Below are positions 36,001 to 39,000 of a DNA stretch of 39,162 nt, piece by piece. The stretch lies in the IMG/VR virus record IMGVR_UViG_2529293036_000024; one strand, written 5' to 3'. Position 1 is the stretch's first letter, and the number at the start of each line of letters is the position of its first letter. Source of the DNA: a virus. Its lineage: Duplodnaviria; Heunggongvirae; Uroviricota; Caudoviricetes. Position numbers: made by a program.

Positions 36001-39000
36001 CGGAGCTGATCGTGTCTGTTATGAAGCTGTCTAATCTCTCTCACCACAGCCTCACCATCGTTCGCACACCGCAGAACATACTGAAAAGGGTCCACAACAC
36101 ATCCGCACTGCAAGCACAGGATAACGTGATCCTGTTCATGAACCTCAATGGCCCGATGCTTACAGCTCTGTTGTGTGTAGTTTTTTCTGCCAGTTACTGT
36201 AATGTTCAGCAGCTTCTCTTCATCGCGCTTTGGCTGCACCAGTGTGATGATATTATCGCCTTCATTTTCCATCAGTTCACCTCCTGCGGCGGTTCTGGTA
36301 GCGGCATCCAGTGTGACGGTTTCCACGACGCACCAGGAATTATCCACCCATCATTAGCGTCAGGATGCCCCGGGATGTAAGTCGCCCACTTCATTCGCCA
36401 GTCACCTTTCCTGTCAAACTCCACGGCAACAAGAACGGCTGTTTTGGTATCCGGCATTCGCTCACTACAACTTATCCAACCATCCGGAGTTACCGGAGAG
36501 TTGCCAGACAGCGCATTCTGCAACCGTTCCAGCTTAACGTATTCCTGAACCCTGTTTCCGTCGCACGCCTGAAGCCATTGCTCAGCCTTTTGCGCATCAG
36601 TGTGAAAGGCACAAGTGCGACCGTCATCAAATTGCATTTCGTAGAGGTTAGCAATCTGTTCAAACTGCGTGTGTGGCAACTTGTAAGTTTGGCTTACGAG
36701 TTCGGCTTCCAGTTCTGCTATGCGCTTCTCTGATGCTTCAAGTAACGCCTGCTTATCGCGTAGCGCTTCTTCCAGTTCAGCAACATGGCATTCACTATCA
36801 ATAAGGTTGTTCTCTGCTGCTCCCAGCTCAACTCTCAGCTTCCCAACCGTAAGCGCAATCTCCTCGTTCTCCTGGTCGCGGCGTTTGATGTATTGCTGGT
36901 TTCTTTCCTGTTCATCCAGCAGTGCCAGCACGGTAGCCGGGTTAGCCTCTGCTATGAATTCAGCGTTTGCATAAGCCTGATCATCTGATTCAATCAGGCA
37001 GTTAACATGACATTCCGCAATCACGCCACCGGGTTCTCCTTTCCATTTTTGGCAAACAAAAACTCCTGTTAAATTGCCGTGCTGGTTAACAGATGTATGC
37101 CCTACGATGTAGCTTCCTTTAGTTGCTTTCTCTGCCTTTTCACGCAGTGCCTGATAATTAATTTCGCTCACTTCGAACCTCTCTGTTTACTGATAAGCTC
37201 CAGATCCTCCTGGCAACTTGCACAAGTCCGACAACCCTGAACGGCCAGGCGTCTTCGCTCATCTATGGGATCGCCACACTCGCAACAATGAGTAGCAGAT
37301 GGGGCATTACTATCGGATTTGTATTTTTGCAGGGAGAGATTGCGCTGCAATTCTTCGATTTCAGCGGCGTTGTCGATGATATCTGCCATTTTCCTTTCCT
37401 TCAGGCATGAAAAAAGGAGCCGAAGCTCCTTTGGTTTTAGAATTCGAATTGCCTTGCCCGCAGGCTTTTCAGCATTGGTCTGGCCCGCTGAACTACGAAA
37501 CTCGACTGGTCAAGCCGTGCCGCCTCTCTCAGTAGCACATCTCTGTTCTTCGTCACCATGTAGATGGTCTCAAACGCAATGTCATACAGCTTGTTCGTGT
37601 ATGAGGAGTTCAGCTCTTTCATGATCGGATACAGGTGTTTGCTGAGGTCCTGGGCTTTTTCCATCCAGAGTTGCATGTAGCAGAGGAGGATGATTTCCTC
37701 GTCTGTGAATTGTTGCTGTGGTTCTGCTTGTGCCGACTGCATGTTGCGAAGTTTCTTTTCGCACTCGATGAAGTATCTGCGTATCTGTCGGCCTTTTTCG
37801 TTACGCTCTACCATCGCCGTTTCTTTGGCTGTATCGAGGGTAAGGTGGTAGTCTTTTTTCCCTCGCCCATAACCTATTTCCCGTTTCTGGGAAATAGCTA
37901 TATAGTCCTGATTTTCAACGAATCCGTACTCTTCAATACGTTCTGTAATCCACGATGCAAAGCGTTTACCTACTCCAAGAAAAGTATGTAAATCACGGGC
38001 ATTAACGAGAAGAGTGGTTTCGTTGGCGATAGTGCCGTTGAATACGGGGATGCGTTGACTGGTCATGATGACCTCCTTATTTGTTTAGTTTATAACCGCC
38101 AGTTAGTAGCTGGCGGTCGGGTGTCAACTGAGCCAAATAAGAAGCTCTGGGCATATTCCCCTTGCGGGTGTTGTATTACGCCTCTCCACCCGACCTTTGT
38201 ACGGATGTAACTATGCCAAATTGCAGGCATAAAAAAGCCGCAAAGCTATCGGGTGCGGAGACCGCTTATTTGTTCAGTGCGGTCAGTATGCGATAGCTCT
38301 GGAGGATTTGTCAATCAGCGGAATATTGATGAACGGGTAACGGTAAATGCCTCATCCAGAAAATTAACGCAAATTCGCATCGCAAACTTGCGTTAATTAT
38401 CTGAAATATCAAGTTAAATCCCCTTAAATGTTTGGGGCACTATTGGGGCAAAATGTGGTTGTTTGGGGCACTATTGGGGCAAAATGTGGTTGTTTGGGGC
38501 ATATTTGGGGCAAAAAAGAACGTATAAAGAACGGTGTAAAATTGATTTCTTCATGGTCAAAATGAGGTGTAACAGATTGAAAAATATATGCTCTTGGACG
38601 ATCTTCGGTAATTCTGTGTTTTTAATGCTTCATGGTTTCAATATGTCCGTACATGGAATAATAAAGCACCAGAACTTTAGCCATTTCTAACCACTCCTCG
38701 TGTTATCTCTATTCCGTAGCGATTCGCTACCACTTATTTAAAGATAAGACGTCCTTTTCAGAGTGCAAATTTCACAACCACTTATTTGATTTATAACAAC
38801 TTTCACAAGCACGCAATTTTGTCGCAAAATGACACATTTTTATCTCATCGCGTTTTTTAATCATAAGAGCGGCTTATGGATAATTATTGGAGATGATATC
38901 TATTCTCGCTAAGAAGCTGTTGCAGGATATTACCAAACGCGGGTAGAAACACGTCAGTTCACTAAGCTTAGTCCCACGTAGCGAAAATATGGCAGCCGCC

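Follow-up and report, generated by a model that had tools for sequence, protein, structure and literature searches.

What are the repeats at the right-hand end of the Shiga toxin prophage 933W for? The stretch of DNA analyzed here, 39,162 nucleotides (nt) of the IMG/VR virus record IMGVR_UViG_2529293036_000024 and called the window below, is the right ~39 kilobases (kb) of this Stx2 (Shiga toxin) prophage, which is inserted in wrbA, and it is 100% identical to EDL933. A first-pass annotation had drawn attention to 38067-38520, where it reported an 11-bp inverted repeat, 31-bp direct repeats, a promoter-like pair and a hairpin, and it offered two readings: an operator or iteron cluster controlling a minus-strand operon, or arm-type recombinase sites near a prophage boundary. 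All four elements are indeed present. We propose that they belong to three unrelated modules, namely a set of integrase arm sites, a hairpin resembling the sib/tI element of phage lambda, and the leader of an antirepressor-type gene, within which lies an RNA of the Rfam family sRNA-Xcc1. This account as a whole, in which we place good confidence, is built on sequence, position, conservation and covariation, and each step of binding, termination, cleavage and repression is proposed by comparison with known sequences. The elements are of ordinary kinds; the regulatory RNA appears to have been previously unrecognized for what it is.

The position of the region is well defined. The 654 bases from 38067 match E. 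coli O157:H7 EDL933 and related strains at 100%, and 38067-38641 are the final 575 bases of 933W (AF125520 61096-61670, identity 100%). The annotated 7-bp attR core, GTTTCAA (AF125520 61664-61670), maps onto 38635-38641 and marks the prophage/wrbA junction, with no strand assigned, and the repeat-rich region is thus the terminal ~570 bp of the prophage beside attR. Rightward of the core come the 5' portion of wrbA, a minus-strand gene with its ATG at 38683, and then ymdF. To the left, the prophage ends with the minus-strand open reading frame L0142 (37437-38066), first gene of a minus-strand operon, whose Pfam domains AntA and P22_AR_C indicate an antirepressor-type protein and which we call ant. 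The genes int and xis are at the opposite prophage end, beyond the window; in 933W, int is a minus-strand gene at 29-1363, separated from the attL core by 22 nt, and the same 22 nt part int from the core in a circular relative. A circular Stx2 phage I record joins both ends and gives the minus-strand order int, core, repeats, inverted repeat, ant.

A repeat search delimits an array of three 31-nt units on the plus strand at 38429-38521, the outer part of the attP P arm. The units at 38429-38459 and 38460-38490 are identical, and that at 38491-38521 shares 71% identity. Within the array are six exact TTGGGGCA cores (38432, 38443, 38463, 38474, 38494 and 38505) whose spacing alternates between 11 and 20 nt, forming three pairs with 11 nt within a pair and a 31-nt period between pairs. 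Window-wide, 2.1 copies would be expected against the six observed, all of which fall within 81 nt, with no others in the 39-kb window. The 31-nt repeats lie 123-209 nt from the annotated attR core. The core-proximal candidate pair (38494-38512) keeps one position, -147/-136 relative to the core end, in every wrbA-type phage, the middle pair (38463-38481) was recognized by motif scan and comparison, and the outermost pair (38432-38450) is an extra one that is missing from phages with four sites. Unit number is accordingly variable: two in VT2-Sakai, the Stx1 phage and phi315, three in 933W and four in Min27, with far-arm sites numbering four in VT2-Sakai, Stx1 phage AP005153, phi315, phi191 and Stx1_9793, six in 933W and eight in Min27. 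Records AP004402 and AP005153 mark this difference solely as 'arrangement g / gg'. The third unit would be a recent tandem duplication, unit number differing among phages.

The 933W integrase carries an arm-binding domain, PF12167 Arm-DNA-bind_2 (E 6e-26, residues 15-78), together with PF00589 Phage_integrase, and the motif is found on the other attP arm as well. Measured from the core end, the six sites span -209 to -136 on the far arm, and TTGGGGCA and CTGGGGCA occur at +64 and +75 on the int arm, on the same strand, 11 nt apart and inside the 3' end of int. Related prophages repeat this arrangement. In Fels-1 of Salmonella, whose core is different, four sites occupy the far arm and the int end bears a pair. 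VT1-Sakai occupies yehV and has an integrase that is 66% identical; three sites spaced by 11 nt lie 115-145 nt from its att, followed by a LexA-box/dinI-like gene in place of ant, and an int-end pair is present too. In Rac (IntR 43% identical) a pair follows the int stop codon, and at the other end, 110-150 nt in from the boundary, there is an identically phased run of GGGGCA. This right-end run (L343 1205-1252; E. coli K-12 1434804-1434851) reads GGTGGCA / TGGGGCA / AGGGGCA / AGGGGCA at 11-nt phasing and probably represents the far-arm integrase sites, the counterpart of the pair after the intR stop codon. The int-end pair is kept in every checked IMG/VR integrase homologue at 68-73% identity, and two more IMG/VR arm types hold four exact TTGGGGCA with different spacers. 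Comparison of five arm types shows invariance at 29 of 32 site columns and at 4 of 18 spacer columns (p = 1.6e-6). The genes beside the arm vary among motif-bearing phages, being ant, none, or a dinI-like gene. The TTGGGGCA motif tracks the integrase family across differing cores and neighbours, as seen in Fels-1, VT1-Sakai and Rac.

An integrase with a cognate arm domain, a motif distinct from the core on both arms within ~250 nt, and conservation linked to the integrase are the features of an attP, and the six TTGGGGCA cores are most likely putative arm-type sites for the 933W integrase on the P arm. The second reading of the first-pass annotation thus suits the 31-nt repeats, which are close to the attR core and recur in related phages (e.g., VT2-Sakai, phi315, Min27 and Fels-1). 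Two points weigh against the assignment. In most relatives the int-arm pair overlaps int codons (AP.VPQ), Rac alone separating the two; the Rac pair, lying beyond the int stop codon, indicates that the motif is not merely a coding by-product of the AP.VPQ tail. In addition, Yersinia phage YP3 (integrase 62% identical) has a TGCCCCA pair at the integrase 3' end and no far-arm sites downstream of int (L091 2400-3300); attP may not be intact in that record, or the arm may be elsewhere. A search of the PDB returned no relative of the arm-binding domain, and the literature searched gave nothing on arm-type sites of 933W, an earlier mention in the 933W genome paper being possible. The direct repeats are probably an ordinary, apparently undescribed set of integrase arm sites. 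In our model the N-terminal arm domain of Int would dock on the TTGGGGCA pairs of the attP arm far from int, the position of the P arm in lambda, and the arm-bound Int molecules would bridge to core sites to form the recombination complex.

The inverted repeat is of another kind. The perfect 11-nt repeat, AATTAACGCAA (38362-38372) and TTGCGTTAATT (38388-38398) with a 15-nt spacer, is the core of a 22-nt repeat of 86% complementarity (38357-38378 / 38382-38403). Read as minus-strand RNA, 38403-38357 forms a hairpin whose stem has 6 + 17 pairs and is capped by a 3-nt loop, with UUUUCUGG after it; the folding energy is -28.3 kcal/mol (z -5.7), compared with -20.0 kcal/mol for the plus strand. The minus-strand fold is the stronger because two mismatches in the DNA are G.U pairs on that strand only, giving 17 uninterrupted pairs in the stem. 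Across attP from int, the end of the hairpin is ~306 nt beyond the int stop codon, and its start is 28 nt beyond the outermost arm site. For comparison, lambda 27300-29200 was fetched and the int-sense strand beyond the P arm was folded. A hairpin at 27585-27538, ACAGAGCAUUAGCGCAAGG...CUUGCGCUAAUUUUUUGU, adjoins the annotated 'int 1' site there; we take it to be sib/tI, and the lambda record carries no such annotation. Retroregulation of lambda int by sib/tI is said to have been established by Schindler and Echols (1981) and Guarneros and colleagues (1982), and tI reportedly lies ~277 nt past int (Schmeissner 1984; Guarneros 1982).

The 933W hairpin, UCAGAUAAUUAACGCAAGU...UUUGCGUUAAUUUUCUGG, aligns with that of lambda on both arms. 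The two share CAGA..ATTA.CGCAAG / TTGCG.TAATTTT, have an internal mismatch at the same position, and differ by one compensatory change, G-C to A-U. A pattern made from both hairpins gives one match in the window and none in shuffles, and matches more than 120 IMG/VR contigs, mostly lambda-type. When four 933W-type and five lambda-type sequences were folded together with RNAalifold, one common hairpin of 18 pairs resulted, five of which show compensatory changes. Among natural 933W-type variants, the pair 38377/38383 changes from G-C to A-U, and 38361/38399 passes from U.U through G.U to a full C-G pair. What we see is therefore an int-sense hairpin past int, parted from int by integration, that is like lambda's in sequence and structure, and judged by this likeness its most likely function is that of sib/tI. 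The first-pass view of the inverted repeat as an operator or an att arm repeat gives way to this RNA hairpin.

Several observations count against the sib/tI assignment, beginning with the lambda hairpin itself, whose identity is presumed by us. In phi315-type sequences, 38370 C>T produces an A.C mismatch on the minus strand (38370/38390) and a G.U pair on the plus strand, weakening the minus-strand stem. The U-run of the tail is short, UUUUCU (UUUUCUGG) as against UUUUUU in lambda. A terminator scan flags neither hairpin, although its silence on the minus strand is uninformative, given that the same scan misses lambda tI. There is no hairpin in VT1-Sakai and no recognizable counterpart in Fels-1-type arms, from which it follows that the hairpin is a separable module not tied to the integrase family. 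The literature searched gave nothing on sib in Stx phages, and an earlier mention in the primary sib or 933W genome papers is possible.

The concept of sib/tI retroregulation is summarized in PMC5300877. By analogy, in the circular phage the 933W hairpin would end int transcripts and/or offer an RNase III site on read-through RNA, lowering Int relative to Xis, and integration would move it away from int, restricting the effect to the unintegrated phage. In the prophage, the hairpin would instead face transcripts entering from the wrbA promoter. It would then lie between that promoter and the ant operon, and may shield ant from host read-through.

Integration joins wrbA codons 1-17 to three phage-derived codons and a stop codon (..IETMKH*; 38635-38683, minus strand). 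With the start of wrbA fused in this way to phage codons and a stop, transcripts from the wrbA promoter are expected to run into the prophage arm, in the direction of the sib-like hairpin and ant.

The third module, the RNA leader of ant, is the part of the region with real novelty, the c4-like arrangement being undescribed in Rfam and in the papers searched. All of its elements are on the minus strand. A sigma-70-like promoter, TTGACA-18-CATACT (38285-38314, motif score 10/12), has a -10 element that ends 7 nt before a b1-like site and 87 nt before the RNA element. The b1-like site, ACUGAACAAAUAAGCGG (38262-38278), is an upstream copy of the ribosome-binding-site target and is identical to 38076-38089 at 13 of 14 positions. 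An Rfam match then identifies sRNA-Xcc1 (RF02221) at 38107-38195; it scores 69.1 bits, where the gathering threshold is 53 (E 1.4e-11), and spans the complete model (positions 1-87 of 87). The element stops 41 nt short of the start codon of L0142, and we read it as a putative c4-like antisense, or anti-Shine-Dalgarno, RNA. Its hairpin-2 loop, GAGCUUCUUAUUUG (38147-38134), is the complement of CAAAUAAGGAG in the Shine-Dalgarno region of ant, and the two are paired when the complete leader is folded to minimum energy. A stable hairpin (38095-38117, 9 pairs, -15.5 kcal/mol, z -5.7) comes directly after the RNA element, ahead of the ribosome-binding site; it is possibly the 3' end or a processing signal of the small RNA, and by eye, hairpins of differing sequence occupy the same place in other family members. 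Finally, repeat and complement searches, folding and covariation point to a b2-like site at 38070-38089 that includes the Shine-Dalgarno ACUAAACAAAUAAGGAGG of L0142. Of the control of the minus-strand operon that the first-pass annotation had envisaged, the promoter and the hairpin (38096-38116 in its limits) survive as parts of this c4-like leader, and the direct repeats drop out as a separate matter.

To see how general this arrangement is, IMG/VR was scanned with the conserved hairpin-1 core of sRNA-Xcc1, which yielded more than 120 loci among the matches listed (survey loci L224-L342). Eighteen of 20 tested loci reached the Rfam gathering score. Counting these matches together with related loci, an open reading frame starts on the same strand within 300 nt in 128 of 138 core occurrences, usually ~75-100 nt downstream. 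Representatives of the downstream clusters carry KilA-N+P22_AR_C, AntA+P22_AR_C, ORF6N+P22_AR_C, Rha, Rha+ANT, P22_AR_N and Bro-N domains. Hairpin 2 pairs contiguously with its own Shine-Dalgarno region over a mean of 7.87 nt, compared with 5.50 nt for non-cognate combinations, a difference that none of 2000 permutations reached. This refined test replaced an earlier one based on duplex energies over long windows, which gave a weak signal (median z -1.3), and a variant without the Shine-Dalgarno bases, which cut the helix short. The b1 copy, a variable 6-8-mer followed by GCGG, covaries with b2, the same 6-8-mer followed by GGAG, and none of 1000 permutations reached the observed value. Promoter-like sites are located 80-140 nt upstream of 58 of 100 elements, compared with 18.5 in shuffles, and this enrichment lends comparative support to the 933W promoter.

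Phages P1 and P7 have their c4 antisense RNA and its b1 and b2 sites laid out in this way, and c4 and c4-a1b1 motifs have been described (PMC2864571). The Rfam consensus structures of C4 and Xcc1 share a plan: each has a closing stem and two hairpins, the second with a pyrimidine-rich loop, and each carries a CCaCCC tail. As in c4-type systems, we find an RNA upstream of an antirepressor gene on the same strand, with a loop complementary to b2 and b1 that covaries with them. Taken together, these comparisons suggest that sRNA-Xcc1 is a widespread phage immunity RNA of c4-like type, lying between a b1 decoy and an antirepressor-type b2 site that it would mask, a proposal to which we give about an even chance. 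In 933W, the promoter at 38314-38285 would start a leader made up of the b1 site, the Xcc1-family RNA, the hairpin, and the b2 site with the L0142 ribosome-binding site, and pairing of the second loop with that ribosome-binding site would repress ant translation, as in P1 c4.

Three points tell against a c4-like role. The Rfam C4 model has no match in 38000-38700 even at E <= 10, and RF02221 is assigned to no clan, so that membership in the C4 clan CL00128 is lacking; with the C4 model not matching the 933W element, we say that the latter works like c4, not that it belongs to the family. The 933W promoter match, taken alone, is not above chance (1 site versus 2.1 +/- 1.6 in shuffles). Xcc1 has been described in Xanthomonas as a trans-acting small RNA. 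An Xcc1 element upstream of an ORF6N gene in APSE phages has been noted (PMC7313666), as has Xcc1 upstream of symE in Xanthomonas integrons, in both cases without a c4-like conclusion, and among the literature searched we found no paper linking Xcc1 to antirepressors, and no experimental data on RNase P processing or translational repression.

Other features of the leader and of the family were seen in passing. The motif CACCCGA occurs twice in the leader (38257-38251 and 38122-38116, minus strand), and both copies can pair with UCGGGUG at 38194-38188, the 5' strand of the Xcc1 closing stem, meaning that the leader can take alternative folds. An 8-nt perfect inverted repeat, AGCTATCG / CGATAGCT (38244-38251 / 38291-38298), brackets the -10 region and the early leader and could serve as a site for a regulator. 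We dropped a possible terminator at 38262-38232 (CCGCA..UGCGG + U6), as it folds no better than shuffles (z ~0), and no LexA box was found in 38067-38420. Elsewhere in the family, one IMG/VR contig (L253, 2422-3753) lines up isrK, C4, sRNA-Xcc1 and an ORF6N-type gene, after which isrK and C4 occur together a second time, a stack of several immunity-type RNAs in one region. In a subgroup of ten loci (L224, L227, L245, L246, L274, L294, L315, L316, L341 and L342) the hairpin-1 core is followed by a protein of ~85 residues (MNPLCTVLPDLP..WAERYLFNSAILSDYCHE), of which a 45-residue N-terminal fragment has no Pfam match; L224 scores below the RF02221 gathering threshold, and the subgroup could represent an offshoot of the RNA family that has diverged and carries other cargo.

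Between the arm sites and the core are two further conserved blocks, both candidate sites for excisionase or host factors. The block AAAAGAACGTAT (38514-38525, plus strand) lies beside the proximal arm site and is identical in the 933W, phi315, Fels-1, L096 and L102 arms, an identity that is partly the result of selection, given that arms were fetched with a search pattern including that block. The other, ATATGCTCTTGGACGATCTTCGG (38586-38608, plus strand), is 27-55 nt from the core. Its GCTCTTGGACGAT is invariant in the 933W, Fels-1, L096 and L102 arm types, VT1-Sakai has it as the reverse complement CGAAGATCGTCCAGGAGC despite a different core, and GCTCTTGGACGATCTT within it is common even to VT1-Sakai; on this pattern of conservation it is a candidate site for excisionase or an accessory factor. 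A consensus match also picks out TTTCAATCTGTTA (38570-38582, minus strand), one mismatch from WATCAANNNNTTR, which could tentatively be an IHF site. It is the single weak IHF-like site found in 38400-38660, and the pattern TTTCA(A/G)NNNNTTA is retained in related arms.

How else could the repeats be explained? Tandem, non-coding repeats phased on the helix at 11 nt are frequent in iterons and operators, and a promoter-like site is only 118 nt away, so a phage repressor or replication initiator might conceivably bind the TTGGGGCA repeats and the inverted repeat to control the ant operon or an origin. This was the first of the two readings in the first-pass annotation and we now consider it very improbable. 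The motif recurs across the att core, in or beside int, and it follows the integrase family even where the regulator next to it is different or missing. Repeats persist in relatives without ant or with other cargo (phi315, Fels-1 and VT1-Sakai), and in 933W they are at least 118 nt from the sole promoter-like site. No replication gene is nearby, the neighbours being the antirepressor-type gene and attR/wrbA, and a strand-specific RNA hairpin like lambda sib/tI accounts better for the inverted repeat. A subtler possibility accepts that the repeats belong to attP but has them bound by the excisionase (DUF1233 family) or by a host bending protein. Directionality factors do bind direct repeats on one arm in lambda-type systems, and all motif-bearing phages encode a related excisionase. 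Here, however, the motif is on both arms, which is typical of integrase arm sites and not of excisionase sites, the integrase has a dedicated arm-binding domain that requires sites, and the block at 38586-38608, nearer the core, is a better candidate for excisionase. We therefore regard this explanation as improbable and retain the repeats as putative integrase arm sites.

The same kind of question applies to the two RNA elements. The inverted repeat could work as duplex DNA, either as a palindromic site for a dimeric protein or as a cruciform, and its perfect 11-nt core palindrome would suit such a role; the symmetric double substitutions at 38377/38383 and 38361/38399 would preserve a palindromic site as well as a stem, and the variant at 38370 fits the plus strand better. 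Set against this, both DNA mismatches become G.U pairs on the minus strand only, leaving 17 pairs uninterrupted; the covarying 38377/38383 pair adjoins a 3-nt loop, where dimeric proteins would rarely make contact; and the element resembles the lambda hairpin in sequence and in position, on the int-sense strand. A duplex-DNA function accordingly has little probability in our view, and the RNA hairpin is preferred. For sRNA-Xcc1, the element could be an independent trans-acting small RNA with no role in ant expression, its upstream position reflecting mere co-mobility. Xcc1 was described as a discrete small RNA under HrpG/HrpX control, and in Xanthomonas integrons it stands upstream of symE, not of an antirepressor gene. 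On the other hand, loop 2 covaries with the cognate ribosome-binding site and its upstream copy, the start codon follows at a roughly constant distance, and the class of the downstream gene is consistent. Independence from ant is, on balance, unlikely, and control of the downstream gene by a c4-like RNA is the reading that we carry forward.

If correct, these assignments have several consequences. They provide a sequence-level attP map for the wrbA-type integrase of the main Stx2a and many Stx1a phages, with an arm motif, (T)GGGGCA in 11-nt phased pairs, that would be valid across the whole Rac/933W integrase family, and the natural polymorphism of four, six or eight sites could alter the efficiency of integration or excision. 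The presence of a lambda-style hairpin beside an unrelated integrase module suggests that the hairpin travels as a separate module. In the leader, 933W would have a second immunity layer beside attR, like that of P1 immI, gating an antirepressor that might inactivate CI and hence affect induction and toxin release. This layer would be in the path of host wrbA-promoter transcripts, with the sib-like hairpin in between. Apparent c4-like control of ant bears on RecA-independent induction of Stx prophages, and the Rfam family sRNA-Xcc1 gains a testable function.

Two features of the window are outside the region discussed. A sok antitoxin RNA (Rfam, 113.5 bits) at 35581-35755 on the minus strand overlaps the hokW/mokW toxin gene, a known hok/sok-type maintenance module of 933W, and a single open reading frame of 2806 residues (25996-34416, plus strand) fills one fifth of the window.

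Each of the three modules can be set beside a known system. Like lambda attP, with its sites P1, P2 and P'1-P'3, the proposed 933W attP is served by a tyrosine integrase with a separate N-terminal arm-binding domain and bears on both arms, at 50-210 nt from the crossover, short repeats whose sequence is unrelated to that of the core, with neighbouring sites about one helical turn apart and an int-proximal arm that overlaps the 3' end of int. It differs in the arm domain (PF12167 in 933W, PF09003 in lambda), in the motif (TTGGGGCA as opposed to C/AAGTCACTAT), and in having its sites in one orientation on both arms, whereas those of lambda are mixed. The 933W-type far arm also stands apart, with 4-8 predicted sites in duplicated 31-nt units of variable copy number. 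The hairpin resembles lambda sib/tI in that it is an int-sense hairpin on the far side of attP, ~300 nt beyond int and just past the outermost arm site, and in that integration parts it from int. Its apical part and loop differ, the U-run is 4 in 933W and 6 in lambda, it is linked to an unrelated integrase and arm-site module, and it is 28 nt from the outermost arm site, whereas that of lambda abuts P1.

The closest parallel for the leader is the c4 antisense RNA (RF01695) of the P1/P7 immI region, the discovery of which is credited to Citron and Schuster in 1990. Both are small structured RNAs that share a transcription unit with an antirepressor gene lying immediately downstream, built of a closing stem, two hairpins and a CCaCCC-like 3' tail, with a loop complementary to a b2 site overlapping a ribosome-binding site and to an upstream b1 site. 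Unlike c4, Xcc1 has in hairpin 1 a highly conserved AAUACAA.ACCCG.AAGGGGAA, and the predicted target in 933W is the ribosome-binding site of the antirepressor gene itself, whereas that of c4 belongs to an upstream icd-like gene. With respect to RF02221, known as an integron small RNA of Xanthomonas campestris, the 933W element matches over the whole model and exceeds the gathering score. The annotation of this family names a trans-acting small RNA of unknown target, whereas in 933W and in more than 100 phage loci it looks like a leader or antisense regulator of antirepressor-type genes.

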